A stretch of 64,000 bases of DNA from Leptogorgia sarmentosa. Lineage: Eukaryota. The notes below the pieces were generated by a model. It did not search any database. It had not been told where the DNA came from and worked only from the letters and a program-made list of their open reading frames with translations. The DNA is taken from positions 10,726,001-10,790,000 of the forward strand of contig OZ210885.1 in NCBI GenBank assembly GCA_964658305.1. The letters are read 5' to 3'. The translations under genes were made by a program, and so were the position numbers. The stretch's first letter is position 1. The number at the start of each line of letters is the position of its first letter. Shown one piece after another: positions 13,406 to 56,137 of the stretch.

Positions 13406-16400
13406 TTATCCTAACTACAGCGCGCAACTCAAACTTCATCCGATATACCAGAATATGATTTTTAATTTCTGCACATTCACTGCGGATCAGTATAGATAGT
13501 ATCGTGCAAAATATAACGCGAAACCTGCTCAGCATAAGCAATTTTGTGTGGCATTCTTGATCGGTAATCCCTTCGATTTGTAAGCGCACATTATACGAAC
13601 AGTCTTCCTATATTCTTGTTAGCATATTATAACCCAGCAAAAAATTGAGGAAGCTACAGCCCACTCTGGGCCATGGGCTCTGCTGCGCTTGTAGAAAATA
13701 GTTGCAATTTCTCGTATGATATTTTTAAAGACTTTGTATTCTACTCTACATTGCACAGCCATAGGAAAATATCCGCGAGTACACGCAGTCTGCATTCCGC
13801 AGTAATCGCATTGGCCGAGTCAAGCTAAATATGTTACATTTCGATCGAAATATTTTTAATACAGCAAATATCGTTTTATGTCATAACGTACAATCTTTCC
13901 CGTGTAAAAGTACGAAACCTAAAAGCATAAAGATTTTTGTTCCATAACAATGATCTTCTGTGAATTTAATTGAGAAGAAGAAAGCGTTGTGAACCCATGA
14001 GTAAACTCACTAAAATGCAATCCATCTTGACACTGTAGGTCATTAATTATTATTCAAATTTTCTGATGCCATACAATTTTATTTGTCAAATGGAAACCAC
14101 TTTCTTGCTTAATCATCCTAACATAATGTGAAACAAATTTCATACGCAGATCTTGATCAACGTATTTTTCAAGTTAAATCCTCACTACAATATCACTTGA
14201 GTGGCAAGCTAAAACATTACATCTGGCAAATATCTGTCTCAACGCGTCTTTGCGCACAATAGCTAATCTCAATGGATTTGAAGGTCAAGTATGCTTGATA
14301 TTATTGTAGCTACGATCTTCTCAGTGATGTGAGATAAAGCAAAACAGAAAAACGATGTAATAAATGTTTTGGTGATTGTAATAAATGTAGTGGTGTCCTA
14401 AAGAATGAGGCCGTAGTTGTTATGGAAAATTCGCATTGGGAACATTTCTTTGAAGCCGCGACACATGAAATGAAATAATGATATTTGATACGAATTGTGT
14501 TTATAATGTGCTAGACTGACACAGCGAGCTATCAACCGAAATGTTTTCAATTGCATGAAGCGCATAAAATGTCTTTAAGGCAACATGAATGCTCACTCCA
14601 ATAGCTGCACTTAGGGATGGAAAATAACCACTCATTCAATGTCGTCTCTATCAATCACGTTATTCATTTATAAGTGGAACTGCTAAATCTTCTAGTCCGA
14701 CTCATTTCCTAAGGCTACCTCGACCTCCATAAGTCCATAAAGTTCCGCGTTTATGTATCGCAGCTTTTCAAAGCCTGATTTACGCCTGCGTTGTGGATAT
14801 TATATTAATTTATAAAATTTACTGTCATTTCTCGGTCATTTCTTAGTACACACCCCACTTCGTTAATTCTTGAGATAGTAACTTCGAAGCCAAAAAATAT
14901 ACTAGTGTAGTATGCTACTCAAGTTCAGTGACCTGGTCTAGTAGAAACATTATCTGTATGTATATTAACTATAACTCTGTGTATAGTAAATCTCAGTATG
15001 AGTCTATAAATCAGGATCAAGACCTTTTGGTGATTTCAACGAACAAAGGCAACTGATTCTTGTAGGTGAATCACCAGATATCTCACATCATAACAGTGAG
15101 AATATTTCAGCGCATATTATGAAATTTTACACTAATAATCAGTCATTATAGCGATATGTAAAAATTATGTTAGGTTAACTTTTCAATTTTAAAACCTACA
15201 ATATTGTTGCAAATCATTCTGAGTCATGTCTCGTATTGCATATTTCAATAAATATGAGTAGACCTTGTTTGTGCTTTTTTGCCTTGTCTTATGGTAATGC
15301 AAGCTATAACAATAACATGTGTAGGTAGCATTATACAACACGCTGAAACAGGAAAATATTCAATTCGAATCCATACATTTATCCATCTTAGAATAACTCA
15401 TATTTCTCGTATTGTGTAGCATATTTGAAGATCATTTTGCACCACATTCCAAAGGCATTTGCGAGTGTACACAGTCTGCATTCCACAATAATCGCGTTGG
15501 CTAATTGACACTAGAAATATTATGTTTCTTACCTTTATTTCAGTATGTCTATCGCAACATTTTGAATAAATCTTTTCTTGTGCTATATCGTACGGACTTT
15601 ACGTTCAAAGTACTAAACATAAAAGTGTAAAGATTTCGGATCCCAAATAGATAATCTTCTTTTAGTTTCAAAACGAAAGTGGAAATAAATCATTAGGCTG
15701 CACGTATGCTAAGAGCAATGCGAGAAAATATTGAAACCTGACACGTTAAAAATACATGGCATGTTGCTTGGGAAACAAATAAAACTTCAATCAAGAGTAT
15801 CGAAAGTTCAATATGGCCTCTTTCTACTACGACTTGTGTTAATTATAGATTGCATTACCAGCGCTCTCACAACGAATTTTCAAAATTCCTTAGCGTAAGC
15901 TTCGGAATTCCTCAGATATTCCCAAAATTCCTTAAATGACTTGTTTGTCCTTGCAACTACCCCCAAAGTACCCTGCAATCCCGTTCTTTTGCCTCTTGTT
16001 TTAAAAACAAGACTCAAATAGTTTCAAAATCGTTAATAAACACAATTTGTGAGGTAACTGAGCTTACTAAAGTATATACAAGATAAAATGGGATTGAATG
16101 AGCGACTCATCATCTCCTGAGCCGGACCGGAAGCGCACATTCGCGCTAATTATCAGAAACTATAATTATGTAAATTGTGTTTCACAGGCATTTTACCACG
16201 GAGATAAAGAATTACTTCATTATTAATTAGTAATTCTTTAGCTCAGGGCATTTTACCAAAGGCTTTTCTCACTGAGCTAAAGAATTACTGGAGAGAGTGG
16301 CTTTTCTCGAAATATTAAAATTCCTTAGAAAATTCCTTAAAAATTGAATTCCTTAAAAAAATCCTTAAAACTTTGCTAAATTCCTATTTCTGAGGAAAAA

Positions 16401-16740
16401 TCCTTAGAAGTGAGAGCACTGTGCATTACACATCGTTTTGCCTGCGTGAGTGCCTGTTATAATTTAGTTGGCGTTACTGTAAAATTATGACCTGAAAAAC
16501 ATTCAAAATTAGTAATAGATACTATATAGTGTCATGGATTAACTTGGAATAAAAATAGTTGTGGAAATCTAGCTATAAAATAGTAAACCAGAATATATCG
16601 CCAATCTCCCAACGCCTCTCGTGAATACCGCTGGGTTACATTAGTGCATGATGGAAATGTTTATTGGTACTGAAGAAGATAACCTTGATTGTCAATGCTT
16701 GAACTCATTAACTCCAATCCATGTACTTTATTATTTTATT
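13406..16740 (+). repeat. Copy A of a local non-coding segmental duplication
   Basis: Colinear, highly similar to 30689-33540; starts ctaactacagcgcgcaact in both. Confidence 0.85.
15859..16421. mobile_element. hAT-type MITE
   Basis: TIRs CAGCGCTCTCAC / GTGAGAGCACTG; 8-bp TSD TGCATTAC (15851-15858, 16422-16429); absent from paralogous copy B near 33230. Confidence 0.85.
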
Positions 16741-17171
16741 CTGAAAACGATGTAAAATGTTTTGGTGATTGTAATAAATGCAGTGGTGCCCAAAAGAATG
16801 AGGCCGTAGTTGTTATGGAAAAATCGCATTGGGAACATTTCTTTGAAGCCGCGACACATATGAAATGAAATAATGATATTTGATACGAATTGTGTTTATA
16901 ATGTGCTTGACTGACACAGCGAGCTAGCAACCGAAATGTTTTCAATTAATGCATGAAGCGCATATAACGTCTTTAAGGCAACATGAATGCTCACTCCAAT
17001 AGCTGCACAGGGATTGAAAATAACCACTCATTCAATGTCGTCTTTATCAATCACGTTATTCATTTATAAGTGGAACTGCTAAATCTTCTAGTCCGACTAA
17101 GTCTACCTCGAGGTCCGTAAGTATAAAGCTCCGCGTTTTTGTATCGCAGCTGATCAAACCCTGATTTACGC
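16741..17171 (+). repeat. Partial third copy of the duplicated segment, interrupted by the Mutator element and resuming at 30143-30688
   Basis: Matches about 14345-14785; the sequence after 30143 continues the match to about 15230. Confidence 0.8.
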
Positions 17172-17597
17172 CGGAATCTGTAAAATCCGGAACATGAAAA
17201 GCCGGAATCTGTAAAACCCGGAACGAGAAAAGCCGGAATCTGTAAAACCCGGAACATGAAAAGCCGGAATCTGTAAAACCCGGAACATGAAAAGCCGGAA
17301 TCTGTAAAACCCGGAACATAAAAAGCCGGAATCTGTAAAACCCGGAACATGAAAAGCCGGAATCTGTAAAACCCGGAACATAAAAAGCCGGAATCTGTAA
17401 AACCCGGAACATAAAAAGCCGGAATCTGTAAAACCCGGAACATAAAAAGCCGGAATCTGTAAAACCCGGAACATAAAAAGCCGGAATCTGTAAAACCCGG
17501 AACATGAAAAGCCGGAATCTGTAAAACCCGGAACATAAAAAGCCGGAATCTGTAAAACCCGGAACATGAAAAGCCGGAATCTGTAAAACCCGGAACG
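17172..17597 (-). repeat. Left subterminal 31-bp tandem array (about 13-14 units)
   Basis: Unit CCGGAATCTGTAAAACCCGGAACAT(A/G)AAAAG. Confidence 0.95.
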
Positions 17598-18819
17598 AGG
17601 TTTTACGGCAAAATGAGCATGTTTACTGTAACACAGTCTCTCATGTAAAAATAATGTAAAATGCACTTTTGACTAAACTTGTTATGCCACAACCTACCAC
17701 GCAGATACAGAGAGATGAAAAGAATGAAACGTTTTCGCAACGTTCGCAACGAAACCAAGACAAGCACTTTTCTTTCTTTTATGTACGAGTGCACTACAGC
17801 TAAGACTTCTCATTTATCCGGATTTCGTGCTCTATGATATTTTATACACTGCAATAAAAATCTGTCATACTTGCCGGAGGAGCCATAGACCTTTGATTTA
17901 GGTACAAACGATAATACTATGAATCATATATGACCCTAACATATACTCACATAGTCAGAGAGACAGGAGAGAAAGGAAAACGCAGCGTAATAAGGTAGTA
18001 CTTTCAAACCTACGCAAAGAATAAACTGGCATGAATCAACCAATCAGTCGAACCCTTAAATCGCATCGACAAAGACCAGGCCAAAGGGAGACAGTCCCTA
18101 GCAGAGCCAAAAACGAGGGCAAGCCTTTAGACGGCTATGCGCGTGTCAAGGTTGTGCGCGCGTAAGCTCTAATCGGTTTTATTGCTTGTCGAGAATTATA
18201 AATTCAACCTTGTTTTTGTTTGTTCTGAACACTATATGCGCACGGCAATTTATACTTTGTTATGTTATATAACGAACGAAAAATTCTGCCTAGTGGAAAA
18301 TGGCGTGGATATATTTATTTAAAGTAAACTATTTGCTTGCGAATAGGAATTTTAACCATGCCGTCGTGTAGGTATTGTAGATATTGTAGATAAGAGAATG
18401 GCTCCAGGTGAAGGCGTGGAGGAAACTTGTACTCCAAAGATAAAAATCTTGCTGTAGGTAAATAATTCATGGCAAGATGGAGTTCAGGTTGTGATGGTTA
18501 TCCTTGCTAGCTGCTCTTGTTCGTATATCAATAATTGTCATTCGATATTTTTTGAGTTTTTTTTATGAAAACTTTGAGGAACACGTTGTTAAAGGAATGG
18601 AGTTAAGTTATTCTGATTAGTTAAACAGTTTTTGAACATGCGGCAGTTAGAAATTTTGTGTCGACTCTTAGCTTCGACAGACTGGCTAATAAATTGTGAC
18701 TTGCAACTTAGGTGTCGTATGACATATTACACTTAGTGATATCACAACGAAACGCGTGCTTTATAAAGCATCTTTAATGACACATCCGATCTTTGCTTTG
18801 CTGCATTCTTGGGGACAAG

Positions 18820-19844: not shown

Positions 19845-20180
19845 TGTTAAACCTGATTTAGATGCTGTTTGATCGCTTTTGCCCCGGATTAAATGAAGCG
19901 TAAAATGATTTTGAGGTATTGAAATGAGGCTAGTTTATGATTTGACGAAAATGTTTAATTCCTGATTGCTTACGATTTTGTTCTGCTGAAACATGAAACA
20001 GTTAAAATGTTGTAAAATATATCTATTTTATTGAGCAGTACCAGAAATGTTTTAGCTTTGGTAGTTTGGTTGATTCGTTTCATAAAATGACTCATTTCAA
20101 TACCTCAAAATCATCCTATGATTCATCGAATCCAGGGTAAGCGAGATCATATAAACAAATTAAAACAACCCTAACAGTAT
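19845..20180. mobile_element. Degenerate palindromic MITE in intron 1 of the transposon gene
   Basis: atgattttgaggtattgaaatgag / ctcatttcaatacctcaaaatcat inverted arms with weaker outer pairing. Confidence 0.55.
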
Positions 20181-20482: not shown

Positions 20483-21470
20483 GCATGGTTATTTACTGCA
20501 TTTTAAATCCGAATGCCAAATTTCCTTTTTATATCGATGCTAAACATGCACGCGAGGAATGGTCCGGTCCCGGGCAATTTCAGATTTTGAAATTTGTTGA
20601 AGACAAGCTTATCAACAAGCATAAGCCAACGCATTCTACTAAGTATGCCAACTTCCGTGAAGATGAAGAGCTGCAAAATTTAACTGGACTATAGGAACGA
20701 TGTACAGCATCTGATTCCACAAAACGGCTAACTGCAACAGAGGTCGTGAATTTACTAGCTAGCAATGACCATCTCGACATTATTCCATTGGCAATTAGCC
20801 AAAACTCTGCACTGGAGAGGTACGACATGCAGGTTGCAGCGAATGAGGCTGAAGAGATCGATCCACTTTTGGAAAACGCCATAAATGCTTGCTCATTTAT
20901 AGCTGTGGTTCTGGGTGATCTCATTTTATCTCCGTCCGAGAGCTCATCTGCAGAAACATCCCAAACTGATTTCAAGGCAAAGGTCATATCGTACGCTGAA
21001 CGATCATTAACCGACTACCCTCGTTACTTCAACCAATACAGGAACACTGAACAGCTTTACGACGCGCAAGAAGCGTACACGATTTTAAGACAAGCTGGAG
21101 TGATCAACAATGAGTACGAGCTGACAGAAGAAGTGTTGACATCGCATTGTGCCTATTCAGAAGATGGACGGACGATTTTCTTAAGTGCAATGGATAAGCT
21201 TCATCGTGAAATTCAGAGTAACGAGAAAAACGTATCTATCGCTGTCTACACGTTTGGAAAATACGTGATTTTAATTGGATGCGCTAACGGCAGGTTTTTC
21301 CTTGTGGACAGCCATCCGGTAGTCGAAGATGCTCACGGAAACAAAACAGGAGTAGCGTTGTTTACTGACGGGCACCCAATGCAATCTTCTTTCCTTTACG
21401 AATGGCTGATACGCAGGTTTCGCAAGTCTGGAGTGGCAAAAGAAAGTATGCAGTCATTTGCGATACTCAA
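20483..21470 (+). CDS. Exon 2: kinase C-lobe (with premature TAG) followed by a putative papain-fold cysteine peptidase (C76-like)
   Basis: One frame runs through TAG 20692: GMVIYCIL...L*ERCTASDSTKRLTATEV; then NACSFIAV (Cys 20890) and GRFFLVDSHP (21307-21315). Confidence 0.6.
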
Positions 21471-23693
21471 GTAAGTCTTTCTTCGTTTATTTTTTTTGTC
21501 TCCGACCTTAGCTACAGGGACCGCGTCACACTAACTATAGTTAACTTTAACAAATATTCTTATAAAACCGGGGAGTTTATTTTGTATAAAACCATGAGTT
21601 TATTTTGTTAGAAAATGTTATCAAAATAGCTGAAAAACGTTAAACCTTGCAAGGACAACTGTTACACGGTTTTAATGTCGAAACTGTATGGCACCGCAGT
21701 TTTTACAGTGTAATGAAAGGAACTTATATGTAGGGGCAAGGAACTGTGACCCATGCACTTCTTAATTTCAACGTTCTTATTTAATAGACCCACAACTACA
21801 CACTCGTCCTGCACTTCTGCGATTGGGCCACCAGAGGCCACACAAAACTCAGCGTCAGACTCCGCAGGTAATATAAACGCATGGTATCGCGTTATTGGTA
21901 TATCTATAGGTTCATCTCATATATTGTCAATTAGATAAAAAATGAAATTTATTTCAACTATAACATTAAAATTTAGAATTTCCTCTAATTCAAACGGAAA
22001 CAAGTTGTGACAGTGTCAACCATGAAGGGGAGTCGACCACCAACATTCAGGCAAAAGCTAATGACAAGGTATTAACTGTAACAAATTTCTTACCTAGACG
22101 TCAAATGTCGGTTGTAGAGATTCAAATCTTTTTCTCAAATGAATTGATCTAAATGTGAAACTTTATGATGACATAGTTCCATTGTACTGTATTTTATAAA
22201 ACATTGTACTGTGTTTCTATAATTTATGAAGACATCGATGTATAGATTTGGCGAGCAGAAAGCGCATGTAGAGCTGGGGTAGCTTAAGGGTTTGTTAGTA
22301 CATTTACAAAATAATTGCAGTATCTACAGTAGTATATATCCTAGCATTGTGCTTATTCTACTAAAGGCAGAGGCAGTTACGTGTGAAAAGGATATTGTGG
22401 ATGCAGAGAACCAATCTTCAAGGTATATGAAATCAGTAATACGTTTCTATATTTAGAATGTTATATAAGTTTAAAATGTTTAGGGAAGACAATGTCGACA
22501 TACGTGTAATATATTGCATGATTGCAGAGAACTATGACTTTATAAAAGATGAACCCATGAATAGCTAGAGTCTGTTTCGATTGCATGGGTGTTTTTTTTC
22601 ATCTCTCTCAAGCACTTACAGGATATACTTGCGTTTTGAAATTACTACTATTATCTTAATCTTAACTTTCTTGTTAAATAGACCCACAACTACACACTTA
22701 TCAAGTACTTTGCTCATTGATCAACCAGAGGACACAGAAAGCGCAACGCCATACTCTTCAGGTGATATAACAAGTCTTCCATATTAACAAAACATAGCAT
22801 CGTTTTCCTGGGAATCTACGAAATCCCAAAATTCCAGAGATTTTTTTGGAATACTTTAAAAAATGGAATTGATATTTTTTATAGGAACGCCTCGCCCACC
22901 TGCTACCCTTGAAAGTGTGCATAACAAAAGTTCAAACTGTCCGGTTGTGGACTTGACTAGTTTTAGTTCTGACGACGACATTGGTGAAAGAACTGCGGAC
23001 ATTGTCACAGCTGGCGAACACGACAGCAATTCGCAGGTAATTTTCAATTTCAAGGCTAATTAATGACGTAGCTACGACGCGTCATTCACGTAATCATCAC
23101 CATTTGCGTTTTAAATGCTATTTATCACAAATACACGACGCACAAAAAATACCTTATAATAGCAACGGGGATATTATTTTAGCACTGTTGTAAGAAAATT
23201 TCATATTTAAGTATTTCAAATTAGAAGTACTACTATTATTAGTGATAATTGGAACTCTGCTAGCTAGATTTTAACTGATCATGTGATCAGTTTGTAACAT
23301 ATACTTCACCCCACAAGAGTGTAAAAATTTGTTGTGAAAACCAAACGGTGGGAAAGCACAATGAAGCATAAAATATTATTTAATAATCAAATTATTTTTT
23401 TGCACACGAAAATATAGTTTATGCACGGTCTTTGACCGTGGTTTCACCGCGACGTTCGTATATTGAACATTTATTTATAGTTCATTTTCTATATTATATT
23501 AAAGAATAACAACGCAAACGAGTCCCAAAGTGGTTCGAGTAAGGGAGAGCAGTCGGATAAAGACGAGTCTTCCAGGTATGTATAGTATAACTTCTGTAAG
23601 TGTATTCGTTTTACAGCTCAGTTTTACCATTCAAAGTGGACATATTCTTTACACGTGCTGAATCATATGACATGTTGAATGTATTGTTGATAG

Positions 23694-24142
23694 TGGTGAA
23701 GAGCTGCCAGTTGAAAGTTACAAACCCGTTGGCGAACCTTACAAGGATGATGCCATGACCCCAGTCTTCGCGTGGAATAAGACAGCGTACACTAGTGAAC
23801 AATTGGTCTTGATACTTTTGGGAACGTACGCCGCAGAAGAAACGTGCATATCTCAACCTATTAACGTTTCCCACAACGTTTCCTTCCTAGTGGATACCAG
23901 ATCTTTTCAGCACGCAGATGACCTAAAGTGTGACGACATGGGTGCCTGGAAGCACAATGGTTCCCCAAAATGTAGTTTCAGAGTGGTTAAAGACTCCAAT
24001 GGAATTAAAAAGATTGTTTCAATGGGTAGAAATTATGACAAGTCAACCCGGCGGCCAAGTGCCAATGATTACGAACTGAGGAGGACGTATTACCAAAATA
24101 CTTCAGATCCTGCTGTCCGCAAGATTGTATGCAAATTATATG
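23694..24142 (+). CDS. Exon 9: CG-1-like DNA-binding domain
   Basis: DDLKCDDMGAWKHNG...LRRTYYQNTSDPAVRKIV, continuing into YVLVQYLF in the next exon; resembles the CAMTA CG-1 motif order. Confidence 0.5.
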
Positions 24143-24483: not shown

Positions 24484-25571
24484 ATACCTCTGTTCAACAA
24501 CTCCCGTATGTGCTGGTGCAATACCTATTCAAAGGCCCTGAGCACGAGGTAAAACGCAAACCGCATGGGAACGCAAAGAGAAAATCATCATACAAGCGGC
24601 TCTTACCAAGCACAAGGGACAAACTAAAACTTTCAATTACGGACAAAGAGAAGACTGCAAAAGAAGTTCTGGACGAAGTTTATGTTTCTGCTGGTGATGT
24701 CGCAATGGCCCGTTCGCTAAGTGAGCTGCCTAGGGGACCCAACGATATATACAACGCCAGACGTTCCGCACGACAGGAGAACGCCGTTAATATCGAGCCA
24801 AGAAACCGCTCCCGGATTGCAGGAGAATGTGCTCCAACTAGCAATGTAAGGTTAGACAGTGTTTGGACACTTTTAGAACGAGCCAAGAGAGAAGAAGATG
24901 AATCGAAAGATTCAGTGTTTATAAGAGAGTGCTCGATACATCCCGCTCTTTTTGTTGTCCTGGCAAACGACCAACAATTAGATGAACTTGTGCAATTTTG
25001 CACAAACCCCCGGAGTTTCTGCGTGCTTGGAATAGATCCCACGTTTAACATTTTTGATAGGAACATAAGTCTCACTGTAACAACTTACAGAAACCTCAAG
25101 TTAGAAAATAGTAAAACCGGAAAACCTCCAGTGTTCGTGGGGCCGTTACTCATGCATCAGCGAAAGGATTGGCAGACGTTTTCAAAATTTGCGCACTCTT
25201 TGAAAACGGCCAGACCGGATCTCGAAGGAATTCTTGCATGCGGTACGGATGGCGAGAAGGCTTTAATCGATGGTTTCAAGCGAAATCTTCGTTTCGCTCT
25301 GTTTCTGCGTTGTTTCATTCACTTCAAGGACAACGTTAAAAGAGAACTGACTGACAGAGGAATCTCACCGGAGGCCAAAGCCCAATACCTGACTGAGATA
25401 TTCGGTAAACAAGAAGGAACGTCGAAGTACACTGGCCTTGTCGACAGTAACTCGGCTGAGCAATTTGAGAGCAGACTCGAAGGTCTTAAATCTGAATGGG
25501 AAGAAAGAGAAACCGTGTGTGGAAACAAGAGCAAGAAGCAAACGTTTTTCGAGTGGTTTACGAGTGAAAAG
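24484..25571 (+). CDS. Exon 10: MULE (Mutator) transposase catalytic domain
   Basis: GIDPTFN (first Asp), GTDGEKAL (second Asp) and LRCFIH (CxxH) are diagnostic Mutator motifs. Confidence 0.9.
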
Positions 25572-26007: not shown

Positions 26008-27615
26008 GCTATTGATATGAAATACTCTATGCTCAAGCCCGTTAGAGTTGAGGCCGGATTGGGAGACCCACCACCTGAGTATACGAACAATGATCCTGAG
26101 TCAGCCAACTTTATCATAAAGCACGGCCTTCACTTTAGCGCCAGTAGACCACACGAATTCATCGGAAAAATAAAGAATATCATTAAAACTCAGCAGCGAA
26201 ACGAGGAACGTGCAGTATTTGGAATGGGCCCATATCGAGTGCGCAAAGAATTCACGCACCTTACCGTTGATGACACACAAAGAAGCCGGTTGAATCATGC
26301 CCAGCTCAGTAAGAAGTTGCTTGATTTCAAAAAGGCAGGAATGAATGACATGAAAGAGATCCTCTCCACCCAAGTCGAACCCGGAGAAGTGCCACCAGCG
26401 CGTATTGGTATAACTGCGGAAGAAAGTGGCATAAAATCCATTCCATTGGCGATACTCGAGTCCATGTTTCAACGAGCTTCAAACCTCCTGAGTGTTCCAG
26501 GAAATGTCATTCAAAAACCTGGAGCAGTTGATGGATCGTTTATTGTTGCTGGAACGTGCAACAAAGTACATAGTGTTCAGCCTGGAAAAGGCGGTTCACT
26601 ATCGTGCGATCGCCTTTGTACAAACTTCTCCTCAAAGATATGCGAACACGTTTTGGCCGTAGCTCAAGTGAAAGGCATGTTAAAAGAATTTCTTGCATGG
26701 TTTAAAGGGAGAAAAAAGAGAGTAATGCTGATGGACATGGTGGAACAAGGTGGCCCTAAGAATGCCGGAAAGAAACCATCATCAAGAAAGCGGACGAATT
26801 CCAAACGGAAGCCAATCGAGCAATACGTCGATCTCTTTGATGCAGCGCTGCCTCAACCAGCAGCAGATTCGCCAATGACCACATTTCAGAATGCACCTGA
26901 AATGCAGCCGCCAACTTCATTCGCGTCGATGCCGACTTCACTTGGAAGTCCACGGGTGCCACACTGGTCCGATGGATTGCCTTCACAAATGTCTTCGTGT
27001 CGTTATCCCTCAATGGTGCGATTTCCCTCTATGTCGTCAGCTTCTGGAAGTACCCCGCACATGCCGCCGGTTAATTCACAAATGTCTTCATGTCCTTATC
27101 CTTCAACGGCGCGATTTCCCTCGACGCCATCATCCTCTGGAAGTACCCCGCACATGCCGCCGGTTAACCCACATGCTTCTCCATTTGGGTTTTCTCAACC
27201 ATTTGAATCCCCCGCCACTCCTTATATTAATCAAAGCAGTGGCTTGACAAACCAAGAGAACGGCTTGCCAGCAATTGCTAGCTTTCAGTTGAAGTGGGTG
27301 CAGGGAACCACGGTGAAGAAATGCTACGGATGTGGCGGCGATATCCAAAATCCACCTGTCCAGCGGCCGGATGACCTCATTGTCGTTTGCCGAGATTTCC
27401 GTCAATACAGAGACAGAGTAACGGGACAACTTGCAAAAAGTCCTGCTCCTCAAAATGTACATTTCCACCTTCGACGCCAATGCATTGTGACACGATATCC
27501 GAGGTTTCATTCTGGTCTCCTGGTGATAAGTAGGGAATTTCAAGCATCGCTGCACCAAGATCACAGAAATAGTTTGGTTGAAAATTTTGGATACAACAAC
27601 CTGTATACGGTATAA
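26008..27615 (+). CDS. Exon 11: catalytic Glu, SWIM zinc finger, basic patch, Pro/Ser-rich region, C-terminal CxxC...H...C zinc finger
   Basis: YTNNDPESAN; CDRLCTNFSSKICEH; GKKPSSRKRTNSKRK; KCYGC...HFHLRRQC; stop TAA at 27615. Confidence 0.85.
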   Translation, partial: AIDMKYSMLKPVRVEAGLGDPPPEYTNNDPESANFIIKHGLHFSASRPHEFIGKIKNIIKTQQRNEERAVFGMGPYRVRKEFTHLTVDDTQRSRLNHAQLSKKLLDFKKAGMNDMKEILSTQVEPGEVPPARIGITAEESGIKSIPLAILESMFQRASNLLSVPGNVIQKPGAVDGSFIVAGTCNKVHSVQPGKGGSLSCDRLCTNFSSKICEHVLAVAQVKGMLKEFLAWFKGRKKRVMLMDMVEQGGPKNAGKKPSSRKRTNSKRKPIEQYVDLFDAALPQPAADSPMTTFQNAPEMQPPTSFASMPTSLGSPRVPHWSDGLPSQMSSCRYPSMVRFPSMSSASGSTPHMPPVNSQMSSCPYPSTARFPSTPSSSGSTPHMPPVNPHASPFGFSQPFESPATPYINQSSGLTNQENGLPAIASFQLKWVQGTTVKKCYGCGGDIQNPPVQRPDDLIVVCRDFRQYRDRVTGQLAKSPAPQNVHFHLRRQCIVTRYPRFHSGLLVISREFQASLHQDHRNSLVENFGYNNLYTV

Positions 27616-27666
27616 GGGGTAGACCCAAATGACTGCATTTGCTGGAGTGTAAAATTTAGGCTCCAG

Positions 27667-27872
27667 GGGCCGGTTGTTCGTAGCCCGTTGAGTTTAAACG
27701 GTGGATAAGTCTACCTGAACGTAAATTTTACACACTGAATATGCAGTTGTATACATAGGTGTTCCTTTCAGGTTGAACGATTTTATTTTGATCGTTCAAT
27801 GAACACATAGTCTTGTTTGATATTCTGGACTTATCAGCCGTTTAAGCTAAACGGGCTACGAACAACCGGCCC
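27667..27872. mobile_element. PIF/Harbinger-like MITE nested in the Mutator element
   Basis: TIR GGGCCGGTTGTTCGTAGCCCGTT / AACGGGCTACGAACAACCGGCCC; 3-bp TSD CAG. Confidence 0.8.
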
Positions 27873-29661
27873 CAGTCAAAGTTTATTGTACCTACAGGCG
27901 GGAGCATAACCATTTTCAAATGTAAAGAAAGTACCTACCCCGCTTCGGTTGGAGACACTCACTCAAAAAAGGTTTGTGCCCCGTCACGCGTGCACTTGGA
28001 AAATGCTATCTACGGTATTCCCACCTCTAAAATAGCAATCTACCACCTCTATGGTGCTTCCGGGAAATTATCTGCCCCGTCCCCTTTTGCTCCTACTCTG
28101 TACAAAAATTTTTTTGCATGGTTCCCTATTTCACAACTGTTGGTATGTTCTAAGAGTTTTGTTTTGTTATGTTTAATTGTTTAGTTTACTGTAGATTACC
28201 AATCGTGCCGGTAGAAGACAAGTAATATTTGAACAAACTTTCGGGTATTACAGCCCTAAAATTAAAGATAACATTTTATTCATCAACCACTGTTGAACTA
28301 CGGTTGAATTTTTATATTGGTCATTTTGCCAAAGATGAATACATTTAAATGCTATCCGTCGGTGTTACACTGCGCATATCAATTTATAGCTTTATTCAGC
28401 GGTAAATTTAAGCGTTTCACGGTTCACGATAACTAAATTCATCTATATCGTATAAAAAGACATGACAGAATTTCACTAGTGTGAGTAGTCTCATGAAAGA
28501 TAAATTACAGCCTACATGCATAAGTTATATTGTATAGGCTATCATGACAGCACAGTTCAGACCAAGTTCTTTCGCGGAAAAACATGCAAAGTCATCATGG
28601 ATATTGATTTAAGGGTTCGACTGCGCCCTGCTGTTGATTCATGGCAGTTTATTCTTTGCGTAGGTTTGAAAGTACTACCTTATTACGCTGCGTTTTCCTT
28701 TCTCTCCTCTCTCTCTCAGAAAGCAGATTCCGTTGCACCCCAATATAAGTGATTACAGCGTTCCGCGCGCACAACCTTAACACGCATATAGCTGTCTAAA
28801 GCTTGCGCCCGTTTTAGCTCCTTTATACTTTAATTAATTAATTATTTTCGAACTAATCTTTGAGCAAGTCTGCTAGGGATTGTCTCCCTTTGGCCTGGCC
28901 TTTGTTTCGCTCAACAACAGACAAAATCACAATCACGTTGATTTTACAAAAATTCAACGAAGGTCACAGGTCACGATGACACTAGATACGTTATACCAAC
29001 TGTGGTTATACTTCACTGTATTACAATCGTAAACAGAGGTTCTGCTGCTTGTTCTGTTGATTACTGTACTAACGTGTCTATCTAAAATATACAGGCTATA
29101 TTTATAGTAAGATAACAGAAACGTATATTGCGGATATAATGACCAAGTTCTTTTGCGGCAAAACATGCGAAGTCATCATGGATATTGTTGCGATTTAACT
29201 AAGGGTTCGACTGCGCCTTGCTGTTGATTCATGCCAGTTTATTCTTTGCGTAGGTTTGAAAATACTACCTTATTACGCTGCGTTTTCCTTTCTCTTCTAT
29301 CTCTCTGACTATGTGAGTATATGTTAGAGACTTAGAGTCATATATGATTCATAGTATTATCGTTTGTATGGCTCATCCGGCAAGTCTGACAGATTTTTAT
29401 TGCAGTGTATAAAATATCATAGAGCACGAAAACCGGATAAATTAGAAGTTTTAGCTGTAGTGCACTCGTACATAAATGAAAGAAAATTACTCCTAAGTGC
29501 TTGTCTTGGTTTCGTTGCGAACGTTGCGAAAATGTTTCAATATTTTACCTATCTGTATCTGCATGGTAGATTGCATAACAAGTTTAGTCAAAAGTGCATT
29601 TTACATTATTTTTACATGAGAGACTGTGTTACAGTAAACATGCTCATTTTGCCGTAAAACC

Positions 29662-30075
29662 TCGTTCCGGGTTTTACAGATTCCGGCTTTTCATGTTCCG
29701 GGTTTTACAGATTCCGGCTTTTTATGTTCCGGGTTTTACAGATTCCGGCTTTTTATGTTCCGGGTTTTACAGATTCCGGCTTTTCATGTTCCGGGTTTTA
29801 CAGATTCCGGCTTTTCATGTTCCGGGTTTTACAGATTCCGGCTTTTCATGTTCCGGGTTTTACAGATTCCGGCTTTTTATGTTCCGGGTTTTACAGATTC
29901 CGGCTTTTTATGTTCCGGGTTTTACAGATTCCGGCTTTTTATGTTCCGGGTTTTACAGATTCCGGCTTTTCATGTTCCGGGTTTTACAGATTCCGGCTTT
30001 TCATGTTCCGGGTTTTACAGATTCCGGCTTTTCATGTTCCGGGTTTTACAGATTCCGGCTTTTCTCGTTCCGGGT
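29662..30075 (+). repeat. Right subterminal 31-bp tandem array (about 13 units), inverted relative to the left array
   Basis: Unit TTTT(T/C)ATGTTCCGGGTTTTACAGATTCCGGC. Confidence 0.95.
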
Positions 30076-30688
30076 TTTCCCGTTCCTCGTTCCGTTCCTC
30101 GTTCCGTTCCCCGATTCCCCGTTCCGGGTTTTACAGATAGCCGATTTACGCCTGCGTAGTGCATATATTTATTTATCAAATTTAAAGTAATTTCTCAGTA
30201 ATTTCAATTCATCATTCGAACAAACGTCACTATAAAATAAAATCTAATTTTCTAAAATTTTATACACTCGCGGGTGTCTTAGCACACAGCCCACTTCGTT
30301 CCTTCTTGAGATGGTTACTTCGAAACCGTATAAATATAGCATGCTGCTCAAGTTCAGTGACCTGGTCTGGCAGAAACATTATCTGTATGTACATTTACTA
30401 TAACCCTGTGTATAGTAAATCTATGAATCTATAAATCAGACCTTTCAGTGATTTCCACGAACAAAGGCAACTGATACTTGTAGGTGAACAGCAGATATCT
30501 CACATCATAACAGTGAGAATATTTCAGCGCATATTATGAAATTTCACACTAATAATCAGCCATTATATCAGTGCATTATGTAGGAGCGATATGTAAAAAT
30601 TATGTTAGGTTAACCTTTTCAGTTTAAAACCTACTAGACCTACTATATATTGCTGCAAATACTTACAAATCATTCTGAGTCATGTCTC

Positions 30689-33540
30689 CTAACTACAGCG
30701 CGCAACTTAAACTTCACCTGATATGCCAGAATATGATTTTTAATTTCTGCACATTCACTGCGGATCAGTATAGATAGTATCGTGCAAAATATAACGCGAA
30801 ACCTGCTCAGCATAAGCAATTTTGCGTGCCATTCTTGATCGGTAATCCCATCGATTTGTAAGCGTGGATTATACAGTCTTCCTATATTCTTGTTAGCATA
30901 TTATAACCCAGCCAAAAATTGAGGAAGCTACAGCCCACTCTGAGCCATGGGCTCTGCTGCGCTTGTAGAAAATAGTTCGAGTTTCTCGTATGATATTTTT
31001 AAAGAGTCTGTATTCTACTCTACATTGCAAAGGCATAGGAAAATATCCGCGAGTACACGCAGTCTGCATTCCGCAGTAATCGCATTGGCCGAGTCAAGCT
31101 AGGAATGTTACATTTCGATCGAAATATTTTTAATACAGCAAATATCGTTTTGTGTCATAACGTACAGTCTTTACCGTGTAAAATTTCGAAACATAAAAGC
31201 GTAAAGATTTTTGTTCCATAACAATGATCTTCTATGAATTTAATTGAGATGAAGAACGCGTGGTGAACCCATGAGTAAACACACTAAATTGCAATCCATC
31301 TTGATACTGTAGGTCCTATTCAATTATTATTCACATTTTCTGATGCCCTACAATTTTATTTGTAAAATGGAAACCACTTTCTTGTTTACTCATCCTAACT
31401 TAATGTGAAACAAATTTCATACGCAGATCTTGATCGACGTGTTTTTCAAGTTAAAATCCTCACTACAATATCACTTGAGTGGCAAGCTAAAACATTACAT
31501 CTGTCAAATACGCGTTTTTGCGCACAATAGCTAATCTCAATGGCTTTGAAGGTCAAGTATGCTTGATATTATTGTAGCTACGATCTTTTCAGTGATGTGA
31601 GATGAAGCAAAACAGAAAAACGATGTAATAAATGTTTTGGCGATTGTAATAAATGTAGTGGTGTCCAAAAGAATGAAGCCGTAGTTGTTATGGAAAATTC
31701 GCATTGGGAACATTTCTTTGAAGCCGCGACACATATGAAAGGAAATAATGATATTTGATACGAATTGTGTTCATAATGTGCTAGACTGACACAGCTAGCT
31801 AGCAACCGAAATGTTTTCAATTGCATGAAGCGCATAAAACGTCTTTAAGGCAACGTGAATGCTCACTCCAATAGCTGCACTTAGGGATGGAAAATAACCA
31901 CTCATTCAATGTCGTCTCTATCAATCACGTTATTCATTTATAAGTGGAACTGCTAAATCTTCTAGTCCGACTAAGCCTACCTCGACGTCCGTAAGTCCAT
32001 AAAGTTCCGCATTTTTGTATGGCAGCTGATTAAACCCTGATTTACGTCTGCGTTGTGCATATTATATAAATTTATCAAATTTAAAGTCATTTCTCAGTGA
32101 TTCCAATTCATCATTCGAACCAACTTACAATTTACACATTAAATACTCTCGCGGGTGTCTTAGCACACAGCCCACTTCGTTCCTTCTTGAGATGGTAACT
32201 TCGAAATAGTAAAAATATAGTATGCTGCTCAAGTTCAGTGACCTGGTCTGGCAGAAACATTATCTGTATGTACATTTACTATAAATCTGTGTATAGTAAA
32301 TCTATGAATCTATAAATCAGGATCAAGACCTTGCGGTGCCGGATTTACACGAACAAAGGCAACTGATACTTGTTGGTGAATCAGCAGATATCTCACATCA
32401 TAACAGTGAGAATATTTCAGCGCATATTATGAAATTTCACACTAATAATCAGTCATTATATCAGTGCATTACATAGGAGCGATATCTAAAAATTATGTTA
32501 GGTTAACCTTTTCAGTTTTAAAACCTAAAATATTTTTGCAAATACTTCCAAATCATTCTGAGTCATGTCTCGTATTGCATATTTCAATAAATATGAGTAG
32601 ACCTTGTCTGTGCTTTTGCCTTGTCTTATGGTTATGCAAGCTATAACAATAACATGTGTAGGTATAGCATTATATAACACACTGAAACGGGAAAATATTC
32701 AATTCGAATCCATACATTTATCCATCTTAAAACAATTCATGTTTCTCGTATTGTATAGCATATTTGAAGATCATTTTGCACCACATTCCAAAGGCATTTG
32801 CGAGTGTACACAGTCTGCATTCCACAATAATCGCGTTGGCTAATTGACACTAGAAATATTATGTTTCTTACCTTTAATTTGAGTATGTCTATCGAAACAT
32901 TTTGAATAAATCTTTTCTTGTGCTATATCGTACGGTCTTTACGTTCAAAGTACTAAACATAAAAGTGTAAAGACTTCGGATCCCAAATAGATAATCTTCT
33001 TTCAGTTTCAAAACGAAAGCGGAAATAAATCATTAGGCTGCACGTATGCCAAGAGCAATGCGAGAAAATATTGAAACCTGACACGTTAAAAATACATGGC
33101 ATGTTGCTTGGGAAACAAATAAAACTTCAATCAAGAGTATCGAAAGGGGGTTAACATACGCAGTTTAATTTCCTTACAGTTGACTATGGCCTCTTTCTAC
33201 TACGTACGACTTGTGTTAATTATAAATTGCATTGGACATCGTTTTGCCTGCCTGTTAAAATTTAATTGGTGTAACTGTAAAATTATGACTTAAAAAACAT
33301 TTAAAATTAGTAATATATACCATATAGTGTCATAGATTAACTCGGAATTAAAATAGGCGCGGGAATGTAGCTATAAAATAGTAAACCAGAATATATCGCC
33401 GATCTCCCAAAGCCTCTCGTGAATACCTCTGGGTTACATTAGTGCATGATGGAAATGTTTATTGGTACTGAAGCAGATAACCTTGATTGTCAATGCTTGA
33501 ACTCATTAACTCCAATCCATGTACTTTATTATTTTACTCT
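30689..33540 (+). repeat. Copy B of the local segmental duplication
   Basis: Matches 13406-16740 except that it lacks the hAT MITE. Confidence 0.85.
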
Positions 33541-36500
33541 GATGTCAGATGATATTACGTACTGACATAAGGGAAAGCGATGCTTATCAAATGACTTACC
33601 CTGTTACCCATTCAATTGAAAATACACCTTGATGATTGATCAGTACTACTTTAACTTTGGACACATTGTAATGCCAGACAATTCATATTTCCCTTGACAA
33701 GCGAAAACCACAGCTGTGTTTTTTCCCATACCAAGACTCGATTTAGTTTCAAAACGAAAGCGGAAATAAATCATTAGGCCGTATACGAAAAATCTTGCTG
33801 ACGTGCTTCTTGTTGCTGCCTTCCCGGAATTTGGATATCAGTCATTCCTTGAGATATGCCGTATAATATGGAAAGGAACATCGAGCCATGGCAAAAGACT
33901 TGAAAGAAAAGCCCAGATTCGAAGTATCATACATTAAATGTCGGTACGGTATTTAAGTTCAAGATCGAATGGCTCTTCTGAGTCAGGTATATGCATTATA
34001 ATAATAATTATGATTTTTTCCTCATTATAATGATTTTTTCCTCAATATTTTTCTGACACAATGGTCAGGGTTAGGATTCTAGGGTTTGGGTTGGGATTAA
34101 GGAAATTCTTAGTATATAGAAAAATGGTTTATATCTAACACTAATATAACTATATCAAGAGTAATACTGAAACGTCGACCAGCAATCTTAGACGATAGTC
34201 CAGCGTGGGCATTACCCGTGTTCTCAATTGAGAAATATTGGGTACTACCCGTTGAGGTCTTTGTTCAACGGCTGTCAGGCAATTCCTGTAGTAGGTACCT
34301 TCAGAGGAGTATGACTGGTGAACAAGACAAGGAGTTACAATTAGTTGTATCACTGAACACATTTGTAACAGACCAGGGCACTTAGGGCATTGTGAAGATA
34401 GGTAGCTACGGATCCATTGGGGTGACAAGGGTCATATGTGATGATTTCATTACTTTAATAAACTGCAACATTTTACATATATCGATGTTAAAATCGGTGA
34501 AACAAAAATCTCAGCGACATTGTTCAACTTGTCAACAACACACGAGGCATAAAAATAGATACGTCAAAAGTTAGAACTAGAATGCATTACGCAATATCAA
34601 TTCAACACGTCTTGATTTACCATTCCGTGGTCATCGTGAAGATGCTAAATACCATCCGGAGGCTGGCAGTTACTCTACGGGGGGGGGGGGGGGGGGGGGG
34701 TGGCAATTTTACAGAATCTCTTAATTTTAGATTTCGGGCTGGGGACAAAGTTTTGGAGAACCATCTGAAAAATTATGGCAAAAATTAGAGTTAATATCTA
34801 AGACTAGCCAAAATAAAACTGTTTTAGGTGCTGTGGTCAAGCGATCAGTGAGCAGATCATTAAAGACATTAAGGCGAGTCCTGGCGCCTCAAAACGAGCA
34901 GCTTTGGCCTTTGCAAAAGGGCTGTCCATGTCAGTGTAGGCTGCTACACTGTATATTACAATACGTAATTAGTCTGACTTCGTATTACCATATCACGGGG
35001 AAAAATATCTCCCAAGCTTTTCAAATACTGCTGCGATCGTATGAACCGTTGTATCCGAGAATAAAGACAATATTACAGCAAATCCGTGAAACATGCACGA
35101 AGACTTGAATGCCATCTTTACCAGAATTTTCGTGTTTGGATTTTGGGAGTTTCATTATTTTTTCTGGCTTATCGTCCGTCCTGAACAGTCATAAGACGCC
35201 GATTCATTCCTGCCTCTGCTTACACATAATTATTTAACAGTTGAACAGCGAACGCAACCAGGAAGAAAATACCGCGATTCTAACAATAAACGTATCAGGA
35301 ATTATATTTATATCTATTACATTCAAATTTGATAAGGATTCCAACAAAAAACGTATTAATAATTGTATCTTTACATCAACACAAACGCAAATTAACTGTA
35401 ATGACTTTATATATACTTCGGCTATATGTCGGTGGATTGAAATTGCTTAATTGCCGTTGCTTTGGGAATCAGCACATAGTTGAACCGCTCGCCACCAACC
35501 AATCGCGGTATCTTGCGCACGATTCAATAAAAAAGTTGCTTTTATTTCTTTTTCAAATTGACTCTAGCTCTGCTCCCTTTCTTATCTCAATGTAGAAATG
35601 TGATCGCTTCACCTGTTGATATTGACTGTCAAACAAGAATACTTGGTCAGACAAATTTGAATTTCAATGTGAATTGAGGCTTGTGAAATGCTAAGGTGAG
35701 TTAAATCAGTGCGTTTCATCTGAAATAAGTAAAACTGTTAAATATAATGGTTTAAGGAGGGTCGCTATGTGCCTGTAATGGATTGCATGCCAATATTGCA
35801 TTTTAGCTGGTAAAGCTGGGACTTGGCAATATCAGTGTTAAACAGTGTTTCGACAAAAAAATTTGTTGTCGCATTCTGGCGCGTATATAAAAAATTGTGT
35901 CTGAATAATTATATAGCAGTTGGAAAACTACTGACTGATTTTGTGTCGTCTTATCATTAGTTCTTTTCACTGTAGTTGCTTGATAGCAATGCATGGTAAT
36001 ACAACATTTTAAAGTAATAAATTCCTCTGTACGTCATGGATTATATGCTCTAATATAATATAGTATATTGCTAGGACTCGCTGAAATATAATCAACCATC
36101 TGTAGGGAAACTGATTGAAAGTGTCATTTTCATTTTAGTTGTCTTTCAAGCCAGGAAATGATAACAACAGACGGAGCAGTTACTTCCAAGTGTCAACATA
36201 TGACTGGTCATTCGATGATGGTCCGTTTGGCGAGATTGTTGGCATAAGTGATGCAAAGGAATGGGTAAAAAATGCAATGAGATCTTGCACCACATTCGTG
36301 AAAAGACCCAGGATGAATCGATTTATCCAAGACACCCTTGTTGGTTTGCCCAAAACTGACCACTGGCAAGGTTGCCTAAAAAGTAGGGTGGTGTGTTCCA
36401 ACTATAATAATTGTTAAAGTTTATTTCAAACAAAACCATTCTTGGCTTTGTGTTCCAACTTCAAACTATGCCTGGTGACAGCTACCTACAATCTTGCTTG

Positions 36501-46099: not shown

Positions 46100-46797
46100 G
46101 CTTTACTACAGATGCCGGCTTTTAAAGGACTCCTGATTTTACAGATTCCTGGTTTTGATTCCTAAATTTACCGATTCCTGATTTTATAAAATACTGATTT
46201 TACAGATTCCTGATTTTACAGATTCCTTGTTTTATAGATTTCTGGTTTTACAGATTCGTGGTTTTATAGATTTCTGGTTTTACAAATTCCTGTTTTTACA
46301 GTTTCCTGATTTTACAGATTCCTGATTTTGTACATTTCTGGTTTTACCGATTCCTGGTTTACCGATTCCTGATTTTAAAGATTCCTGATTTTATAGATTC
46401 CTGGTTTTACAGAGTCCTGATTTTATAGATTCCTGATTTTACAGATTCCTGGTTTTACAGATTCCTGGTTTTACAGATTCCTGATTTTATAGATTCCTGA
46501 TTTTACAGATTCCTGGTTTTATAGATTCCTGATTTTATAGATTCCTGGTTTTACAGATTCCTGGTTTTATTGATTCCTGATTTTATAGATTCCTGATTTT
46601 ACAGATTCCTGGTTTTACAGATTCCTGGTTTTATAGATTCCTGTTTGTTAGGTTCTAGATTTTACTGATTCCTAGTTTTACATATTCCTGGTTTTACACA
46701 TTCCTGGCTTCAGAGATTCCTTGTTTTAAGATTCCGTCTTTTACAGGCTCCGGCTTTTACAGGTCCTGGTTTTACAGATTCCGGCTTTTACAGATTC
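46100..46797 (+). repeat. 16-bp tandem array TTTTA(C/T)AGATTCCTG(G/A)
   Basis: Directly visible; degenerate at the edges. Confidence 0.92.
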
Positions 46798-49749
46798 ATG
46801 TATTCCCTTTACCATCCCCTTTCCTGGTTCCCGGTTTCCCGTTCCTTGTTTCACACATAGCCTTTAGTTATCCCCTCTTGTTACAATGCTGGCACAATCA
46901 TGGTCACCAAATCAACATCTACTTTGAAATGAAAAATGAAGCCCCACATGAAATGAGAAATGAAGCCCCCCGGCCAAATTTCTCGTTGTAATAATATTAT
47001 GTGTTGATTTCGTCAGATTCAATAATTACATCATTCAAATACTTTGACACAAAGCGACGAATGGTTATGTTTTCACACCTTAAACAATCACATTTTGACT
47101 TCTGGGCAGTAGACGTATCAAAATTATGGAAAGGTTCTGATTGGGATGAAACCAGAACTATGTTGATTCAAGCTTATGAAAGTTATGAATTACTGCTTAA
47201 ATGCACCATACCCAATGAATGCCCATTTACAGTGTGCGACGCGGAAAATAGACCTTAAAGCCTAAAATTGCAAAGCGAAATGACAAATCTTTGTCATTTA
47301 CTATTACTCTTGCAAAATGGCAAACTCACCAAATATATAGAATCACAAATAAAAGCTTATAAGCCAATTAATGTTCGAATATTATAGATATTATACCGAC
47401 ATGGTCAGATGATCTCTCAGACTTGCAAATCTAACTGCATATAATGTTAGCTTGAAGATTACCTTTTAAATCTCTTTCTTTATCTTTGTATCCCAAACCA
47501 AATGTAGCCCAATCTTTTCAATGATATCGATTATGTTATATATTGTTGAAAATACAAACGTTGTGCGATAATCCTGCCGATTTTATATACTCTCTCTAAA
47601 GAATGATAACAAATATCTCGCTGGCACCGAACTACGAGAAATAACAAAGTTGCTTTATTCATCAGTGTGATTGATATCAAAGAGTTTTTATAAGTGAAGT
47701 GTTTTGATTCTCTGGGATATTTTAATTTCTCGTTTCGCCACTTCCTTTCTATCTGTAAATCCTGTAGACATATATTGTTGACGTTTTTTGTTATGTTTTG
47801 CACATATACATGCAAATTAAACTGGACACTTTAAGACCAGAAAAATTGCCATCCCTATTAAATATATATTAACTGTACAAGTTCATCTGGTGCCCTGAAA
47901 ATTTCAATGATTGCGCAGCAGAGACGTGTAAAAAGTTTGAAATTTCCCGCTACAAAGCATGACTGTAGTGTATGTTTTTATAGCTTTCTGCCAGTGGATT
48001 AAAATTATTATTGCTTCACTTGATATTTACCACAATAACTCAGGTTTGGTTCCTGCTGATTACAATTATAATTATAATTATTAGGTCTGCATATTGCCCG
48101 TTTAAAACCTTACAATTCTATATAGAGAAGCTAGCGCATTTTCTGAAGTGATGAATCAGAACATTGTGTATAGCTCCCTCAATACCATGTGACCATTGTG
48201 AAGATATGTATTTGTAGACATTTGTCACTTGTCAAAGTTGTATGCGCTCAATAAATCATTTTCTAGAGAGTAAGAAATTTTGAAAAAGGTTACGTAACTG
48301 TCGTTGGCATGGCAACAATGACGTTTCTAAAATGGCAGATAACTGCCCTTTAAAGTAATTTAACTGGACAATTAGTTCGGTGACCCCCGTAATATGCTTT
48401 TAGTTATGGCATTTTGAATTATTCTGGTGAGTTTAACAAACATTATACAAACTAGGTAGCTAAACGTGATTATTTGACATAAAAAAAGTTTCGCTTGGTA
48501 GGAATTTTTTAAAATTCTAAAAATAATTTTAAACACGAAACGAAAGCCTTCTGTGAAATAAGAAATGGGGGTCAACTAACCCATTTTCAAGTTAAACTAA
48601 TTTAAATGGTGTCATTGTTGCCATAGCAACGACAGTTAGGTAATTTCTTTTTCAACGACAGTTATGTAATTTTTTTAAATTTCCTGACATTCAGACCAAG
48701 TGTTATTAAGCATATATATGTTCATTGTCTTTTAACGACTATTAATTGTCCAAAAATACAGATCAAAACTCCATATTAACCAGTATTAAAAAACTGTGTA
48801 GCGAGCCACCTGAAGGCAAGAGATTCTTGCTCACGCGAATTGAATGATCTGATCATGAATTTACAACTTATTGCAAAGAACTCCTGTCAGTGATGAAATA
48901 TTGTCAAACTAGCTTAAATTTCAATTTACAAGACCTTTTTTATAGGCTAATGTATTAGTACTCGCTGCATTTTACACACCACTAAATATTTACTCGCTAA
49001 CTAAACTAGTATTGCGTGGGGGTCAACAATATTAATAGCGCTAACCTAACAATTCTCCTGCAGGGCATAATATTATTATGGGCATATTATATTATTATGT
49101 TATAATTGAGGTATCCTATAAATAAATGTAAAGCTATTGGTCATGCATAAAGTGGAGATATTAAAATATTTCAAAACACTTTTTCGAACTGTGGGGTTCT
49201 TTAAAGGAATGTAAGATATGTGCTTTCGTTTTAAAGTTCTCGCGCGCATATCTACAAAACTCTTTCCCCTCAGTTACATGACTGATAGACGAGAATCACA
49301 GTAACATCTTCTTCGCTGTGATCGGTATTTGATTCTCGAAATCGTTAGTGCGAACTATTTTTAATTCTCCAATCATGCCTATGATAATTTCTTCCAAGAA
49401 GAAAGACAATACTAGAAGATGATTTGAAATTCACGACAGACTATAAAGACTTTTATTTACTGACAACCTAAGCAGTGAGGCTACGAACTCGTATCACAGA
49501 CCAACAAAATTTCCTCTTTTTCTTCAAACGGTAATCGCTATTGCTCCGCGTTTATACGTGTTTTGTGAAAGAAATCATTTGAATACTATTGAATTGAATG
49601 AAAATAAATATACATTATTTTGCAGGTATATTCTCGAAGCTCAAAAGTCATAACAATAACTGGCTTCAGCGAGATGTAGCTGCTCTGTACGCCGAACATT
49701 GAGTGCATGGTGAGTAGAATTTCTTTGTTGACGGAGTTAGTTTAACAGA

Positions 49750-55940: not shown

Positions 55941-56137
55941 TAGTCCTATACACACCTTTAGGAGGTTCTTAGCTTGATTTGGTATTTTATATTATTTCTG
56001 TATAAAAGAGAGATTTTTAAAATGCCAAACGCCACAAAGATGAACAAGCTTTAGTAAAAATAGCTATTATATTCGAGATTTGTAGGTGCATAGTCACATT
56101 CTGACCATCTGTAATCTGAATAAATATCTTTTTTAAG

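Follow-up and report, generated by a model that had tools for sequence, protein, structure and literature searches.

What protein does the Cys...Asp-Ser-His reading frame at 20695-21474 (+) of this Leptogorgia sarmentosa locus belong to, and what would such an enzyme do inside a transposon? The original prediction, made from the letters of the window (the whole 64,000-nucleotide stretch of DNA that was analyzed), was a peptidase of the herpes tegument type (C76) carried as transposon cargo. Our best explanation overall, to which we give a probability of about 0.6, is that a protease of the VTD class (viral tegument-like deubiquitinase) and a Ser/Thr kinase form the N-terminus of a Mutator transposase and, tethered to it, would favour transposition. 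Papers are cited by PMC number.

A spliced gene in a delimited element

The element that carries the gene is 13 kb long (Table 1). Its inverted repeats, about 0.9 kb each, are 92% identical over 892 columns (17182-18058 versus 30078-29200) and 96% identical in their inner part. Comparison with the empty paralogous site gave a target-site duplication of 8-10 bp, the exact length being blurred by microhomology with the terminus. The flanks 13409-17170 and 30257-33542 form a tandem segmental duplication (91-94%) with two empty copies of the insertion site, and at these paralogous empty sites, 32039-32046 and about 14777-14786, the target site is single-copy. Mutator (MULE) transposons have a target duplication of about 9 bp and share the long terminal inverted repeats, although these are stated as 14-500 bp in PMC6446971, compared with about 0.9 kb here. 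Elsewhere in the window, a related 16-bp tandem array at 46100-46850 is about 76% identical to the terminal arrays, has the same terminal bases at about 46830 and is probably one end of a related element. Kinase-like frames, together with a 126-bp repeat frame resembling TPR repeats, were seen at 56137-57688 and 60301-61353, and these kinase-like frames may resemble IRE1/RNase L.

Eleven exons with GT..AG borders join into a single frame of 1815 codons with one internal stop, whose product is ordered as kinase (about aa 26-356), protease (358-590), Ser/Thr/acidic linker, conserved region, DDE core and Cys/His fingers. The window gene has every kinase hallmark (VAIK Lys, alpha-C Glu, HRD, DFG and APE), as do most of 16 relatives. 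Asp1102, Asp1173, Cys1194-xx-His1197 and Glu1311 of the MULE core are common to the relatives, and we take these DDE and CxxH motifs to be the catalytic signature of Mutators; moreover, the exon 10 core scored 0.96 to MULE-bearing clusters in the ESM Atlas, and Pfam MULE (PF10551) was matched in relatives only, at E about 1e-3 and under its cut-off. The exon 9 region is probably DNA-binding, to judge from its position; it may resemble WRKY/GCM/CG-1-type DNA-binding domains, and we take the Cys/His finger of exon 11 to be SWIM-like.

Table 1. Positions in the window of the element, its gene and the catalytic residues of the protease domain
Feature	Position	Strand	Evidence or remark
Left target-site copy	17163-17172	+	8-10 bp; same bases at 30143-30152
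Right target-site copy	30143-30152	+	Matches left copy
Left terminal inverted repeat	17173-18065	+	31-bp tandem array at about 17170-17596; starts inside the array, the right repeat extending ~64 bp further outward
Right terminal inverted repeat	29189-30142	-	31-bp array at 29664-30078; complete terminus
Exon 1: Ser/Thr kinase, N-lobe to activation loop	18820-19603	+	VVVKK, HRDLKTSN, DFG, APE; Pfam Pkinase E 3.5e-28
Exon 2, first part: kinase C-lobe	20483-20766	+	Acceptor at 20483; nonsense codon 20692-20694 in window copy
Exon 2, second part: VTD (C76-like)	20770-21470	+	Model, fold matches, conservation; ends at GTAAGT donor
Candidate catalytic residues	Gln 20800, Cys 20890, Asp 21307, His 21313	+	Asp-Ser-His = 21307-21315
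Exons 3-8: Ser/Thr/Asp/Glu-rich linker	21788-23575	+	Six GT..AG joints in X8 contig; in frame; composition
Exons 3-8, single spans	21788-21867, 21977-22068, 22367-22422, 22682-22761, 22885-23036, 23505-23575	+	
Exon 9: conserved region ahead of catalytic core	23694-24142	+	X8 contig 28; no Pfam or PDB match
Exon 10: Mutator transposase core	24484-25571	+	Asp 25035, Asp 25248, CxxH; ESM Atlas, alignment
Exon 11	26008-27615	+	Catalytic Glu 26098, Cys/His finger, low-complexity stretch, C-terminal Cys/His domain, stop

The protease frame lacks its own start: on the upstream side it passes through the TAG at 20692-20694 into the kinase C-lobe, and its apparent stop (21472-21474) sits within the GTAAGT splice donor. 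That the kinase and the VTD form a separate passenger gene ending at 21474, as the original prediction implied, is very improbable in our estimation; 70 of 104 database relatives do end within 15 residues of the domain, but in the window gene those end points fall at a splice donor, contigs continue beyond 21470, and relatives with unbroken fusions exist. The predicted transposon context holds, in a Mutator element that is now delimited, but stand-alone cargo does not, the domain being the 3' part of a kinase exon with its "stop" in a splice donor. In all likelihood the VTD belongs to a fusion protein in which splicing joins kinase, VTD and transposase, and the existence of such a fusion bearing a VTD fold is the part of our reading that we regard as very probable.

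The stretch was present, whole or in part, in 11 of 16 listed public runs, none recorded as RNA. The X8-X10 contigs come from one study, and we take them to be RNA because their joints are GT..AG and the introns lack coverage. In X8 and X9 contigs 19603 is spliced to 20483, a single X8 contig skips the six introns between 21867 and 23694 at the listed joints, and two more introns are skipped between consecutive pieces; nine of the ten introns were thus seen spliced in public contigs, all with GT..AG ends. The VTD-to-linker joint, 21470-21788 (intron 21471-21787, GTAAGT..TAATAG), is one that we infer: contigs of X8 and X10 depart from the DNA exactly at 21470 and continue for another 22 and 3141 bases, and a spliced length of 3141 bases counted from 21470 reaches 27080, which is 6-8 bases away from the 32-bp repeat that ends the X8 transposase contig. 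Exons 3 and 6 (near 21780-21800 and 22675-22695) are 80 bases each with a common acceptor context, which suggests duplication of a linker exon. Short high-copy repeats lie at 19880-20110 in intron 1 and at 27660-27875 past the stop codon, and many contigs are loose-ended there.

Broken copies of the gene are common. The in-frame TAG of the window copy, in the kinase C-lobe, is a Tyr codon in 7/7 runs compared and in 5/5 near-identical database proteins; X1 has a different nonsense change two codons further on, and X2 has a one-base deletion at 21411, which fits the frameshifted tail of the database protein P0013. Among the listed differences across exons 1-2, the X8-X10 contigs have no such break. 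The window copy is most likely dead, and it is probably immobile because its left end begins inside the array, without about 64 outer bases.

The predicted protease domain and its candidate catalytic residues

On its modelled fold, the domain is a divergent VTD (peptidase C76), a known enzyme family. The structure model from 111 sequences (pLDDT 92.6) has a papain-like alpha-beta-alpha fold, nearest to M48 and DrT1-VTD2. A first model from 11 sequences (pLDDT 71), with the Cys within a helix, was superseded by it. In a VIA comparison with 48,161 chains, the zebrafish Helitron VTD 8ADD (DrT1-VTD2) was best (Z 15.9, rmsd 3.2, 185 aligned) and herpes M48 (2J7Q) second (Z 14.1, rmsd 3.4, 181 aligned), while Waddlia Wc-VTD1 (8ADB) reached Z 11.7 (rmsd 3.6, 169 aligned), close to the YopT-like AvrPphB (Z 11.0, rmsd 3.6, 164 aligned). 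UfSP2 (Z 6.8) and ATG4A (Z 6.3) lie about 9 under the best VTD match, so the fold is not nearest to UFSP or ATG4. In Foldseek the VTDs fill the top six rows, and herpes tegument proteins lead in the viral library. The predicted herpes-tegument-like fold with Cys...Asp-x-His in a Mutator element is thus borne out by the structural comparisons.

Identity to the solved VTDs is 10-17%. A domain-only profile found 8ADB at E 0.25, ranked under one unrelated ribosomal match, and puts the Cys and the Asp-x-His on C313, D440 and H442 of Wc-VTD1 (numbering as in PMC9741609). Pfam gave no match to the window domain, and PF04843 was matched by 6 of 111 family members when E values up to 1 were allowed (the best being 0.0021), the window protein not among them; PF04843-bearing clusters rank first in the ESM Atlas at 0.87, which we treat as a lead only. 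PDB sequence searches returned just noise or kinase C-lobes, and word-index searches for longer homologues found none, which is weak evidence. In BFVD, the VTD model has matches (E 2e-4 to 1.5e-2) among uncharacterized giant-virus proteins (Tupanvirus A0A6N1NWC7, Indivirus, Catovirus and Yasminevirus).

All of the predicted motifs (ISQN, NACSF, YVILIG and RFFLVDSHP) were found in the frame, and in the spliced product their key residues are Gln368, Cys398, Asp537 and His539. The Cys of NAC is the first residue of a helix in the high-confidence model, as had been proposed, and of the residues expected on strands the Asp closes one and the His lies in the loop after it. Searching 1.84 billion representatives for homologues yielded 248 clusters (50% identity) at E up to 0.001; the best 150 of these, minus one false hit (P0178, a WD40 protein), made up an alignment of 149 relatives, in which column counts exclude gaps. 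The catalytic Cys is kept in 101/104 rows, the Asp in 110/127 (Glu in 13 more), the His in 120/126 and the Gln in 82/89, whereas the domain's remaining seven Cys/His positions are conserved in just 3/114 to 48/128 rows, so that the conservation of the motifs goes beyond chance. The triad (Cys, Asp or Glu, and His) is present in 67 of the 84 rows that cover all four positions. The distance of the Gln from the Cys had been a caveat of the original prediction; since the Gln is conserved despite a spacing that varies from 19 to 42 residues over 70 rows, the alignment indicates an insertion between the two in this VTD family. In addition, the VTD class has ubiquitin-tail-binding acidic residues about 50-55 positions after the Cys, and the conserved Asp455 (99/134) and Glu458 (105/137), 57 and 60 residues after it, are candidates for the same part.

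All characterized VTDs cleave ubiquitin (PMC9741609), and by analogy with them we consider it likely that ubiquitin or NEDD8 is the substrate here. The insertion may set specificity, because it is placed where Wc-VTD1 has a helix proposed to bind the proximal ubiquitin (PMC9741609). Could the domain instead cleave another modifier (SUMO, UFM1 or ATG8), replacing the Ulp1 of other Mutators? The same insertion could shift specificity, UFSP2 and ATG4 likewise use Asp-x-His (PMC9741609) and Ulp1 is present in animal Mutators (PMC2836005), but the fold scores of UfSP2 and ATG4A against that of the best VTD, and the lack of reaction of SUMO probes with Helitron VTDs (PMC9741609), make us think this quite unlikely. 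We give slightly more credit, though still little, to a peptidase that processes its own polyprotein, so that kinase and transposase are released, as AvrPphB/YopT-type proteases are the next structural neighbours and a long unstructured linker follows the domain. This linker contains no Gly-Gly, however, deubiquitinases are the best structural matches, and the order Asp-x-His is that of the VTDs (PMC9741609), whereas YopT and AvrPphB, for all their related fold, have the order Cys-His-Asp and are not ubiquitin-directed.

Relatives of the kinase-VTD pair

The kinase lies upstream of the VTD in 44 of 48 relatives with at least 60 aa before the domain, and for one of the exceptions longer members of its cluster do carry a kinase. 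Trees were compared for 24 proteins that have a kinase as well as a VTD: each of the five starred clades of the kinase tree is found again in the VTD tree, where four carry a star as well, and on these trees kinase and VTD travel together. That the catalytic sets of both are conserved at about 30-40% identity shows that both are under selection, but does not indicate the function selected. Relatives with a named source belong to Porites, Desmophyllum, Paramuricea, Actinostola, Sanderia and the sea cucumber Holothuria. Many genes of this kind carry a mistaken label as plain kinases, such as "Cyclin-dependent kinase-like 2" or "STY46". Scans of metagenome and viral contigs found no loci of this kind.

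At least 60 residues follow the domain in 21 of 223 VTD proteins: five of these tails are the window-type transposase, four a second transposase lineage, three a helicase and nine unassigned. Most VTD relatives are single-exon fragments and just 12 of the 223 have a tail assignable to a transposon-type enzyme; therefore, some kinase-VTD genes may be host genes. Kinase, VTD and transposase occur in one predicted protein in the jellyfish Sanderia (P0159/P0214; 37% over 1373 columns), and P0123/P0215 have the kinase C-lobe, VTD and MULE together. Between the window gene and the jellyfish protein, identity is 29% in the VTD, the least conserved folded domain, 48% in the exon 9 region (aa 781-1015) and 58% in the DDE core. 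The second transposase lineage has no Pfam match, and from its motifs we take it to be Mutator-like/GCM. P0229 has a kinase, a VTD and then a DEAD-box helicase (E 5.6e-27), and P0221 and P0197 have a VTD fused to a DEAD-box helicase; the helicase of the P0229-type proteins is presumably RecQ-type. One might guess that the helicase-linked kinase-VTD genes are tied to the helicase-encoding AcademH elements (PMC10045372). In P0191 (Actinostola), tandem repeats with basic and poly-Asp stretches follow the kinase-VTD. The backbone of the VTD tree (78 rows) is open and gives no order of transfer, and it is plausible that Mutators recruited the VTD independently.

Known systems and proposed function

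The enzyme class is not new to transposons: Erven et al. (2022) described VTDs in Helitrons and mentioned cnidarian VTDs fused to transposon-associated domains (PMC9741609), and the cnidarian VTD cluster of their Supplementary Fig. 2 may include the present kinase-linked subfamily. The known VTDs (8ADD, 2J7Q and 8ADB; PMC9741609) and the present one have in common the fold (predicted here), the Cys at a helix start, the Asp-x-His and the transposon setting; they differ in the Gln-Cys spacing (13 in Wc-VTD1) and, besides the low identity, in that the VTD here is tied to a kinase and stands on a Mutator transposase. The words "kinase" and "Mutator" have 0 occurrences in the main text and three supplement files of PMC9741609. 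Mutator and Ginger transposases with Ulp1 or OTU domains (PMC2836005), such as MuDR-6_HM with OTU (PMC6446971, Table 1), likewise place a ubiquitin-like deconjugase on a cut-and-paste transposase, in cnidarians too, but their protease is of another class and is C-terminal in Ginger rather than N-terminal as here, and the extra domains listed in these two papers include no kinase. IS3EU elements also bring a kinase to a eukaryotic DNA transposon (PMC12730594), but theirs is an alpha-kinase encoded by a separate gene in opposite orientation, whereas here a typical Ser/Thr kinase is fused to the protease and the transposase. Full-text literature searches found neither a kinase-VTD fusion nor a Mutator transposase with a kinase attached; Repbase and the original Phantom and AcademH descriptions are places of possible prior mention. 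Transposon-borne VTDs and the Ulp1/OTU domains of Mutators are already known, and what appears new, judged from sequence, is the kinase-VTD cassette fused to a transposase, with its predicted function.

Intact copies would encode one protein that combines a phosphate writer, a ubiquitin eraser and a cut-and-paste enzyme. Cys398, with His539 and Asp537, would attack the isopeptide bond, and Gln368 may form the oxyanion hole, a term that PMC9741609 does not use. The transposase would bind the element ends and cut, and, in what is the weakest step, would tether both enzymes via the long linker so that they reach nearby proteins. There the protease may strip degradative or repair-signalling ubiquitin or NEDD8 from the transposase and its neighbours, thereby keeping the transposase from the proteasome or dampening repair signals at the break, and the kinase may phosphorylate itself or host targets in favour of transposition. 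Analogous roles have been proposed for Helitron VTDs (PMC9741609) and for Ulp1/OTU. That kinase and protease act tethered in this way to help transposition is a view to which we incline by a small margin.

A rather unlikely but not negligible rival is that the cassette is a counter-defence effector that acts away from the transposition site on silencing or on innate-immune signalling in the host (cullin ligases, K63 chains), the fusion merely securing co-expression and co-inheritance. Known activities of herpes VTDs include inhibition of NF-kB and interferon signalling and the removal of NEDD8 from cullins (PMC9741609), and the cassette heads different enzymes including a helicase, which argues for a job not specific to one transposase; but it is in frame with the enzyme in 12/12 relatives with an assignable tail, which is simplest if proximity matters. 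More tentatively than the tethered action itself, we suggest that an old, portable kinase-deubiquitinase cassette heads the enzymes that mobilize several transposon lineages of marine invertebrates (two Mutator-like transposases and a RecQ-type helicase, the latter possibly from AcademH elements), the kinase controlling or priming the deubiquitinase so that phospho-ubiquitin marks of the host are rewritten where transposition takes place. If this were true, the cassette would be a transposon-encoded signalling device.

Why transposons repeatedly acquire ubiquitin-like proteases is an open question in the field (PMC2836005, PMC9741609). The present family adds a large VTD subfamily, mostly missed by Pfam (the 248 clusters above), in which the protease is joined by a conserved kinase on the transposase chain; with the element delimited and spliced, intact-looking copies at hand, domain-by-domain mutants can test each enzyme.
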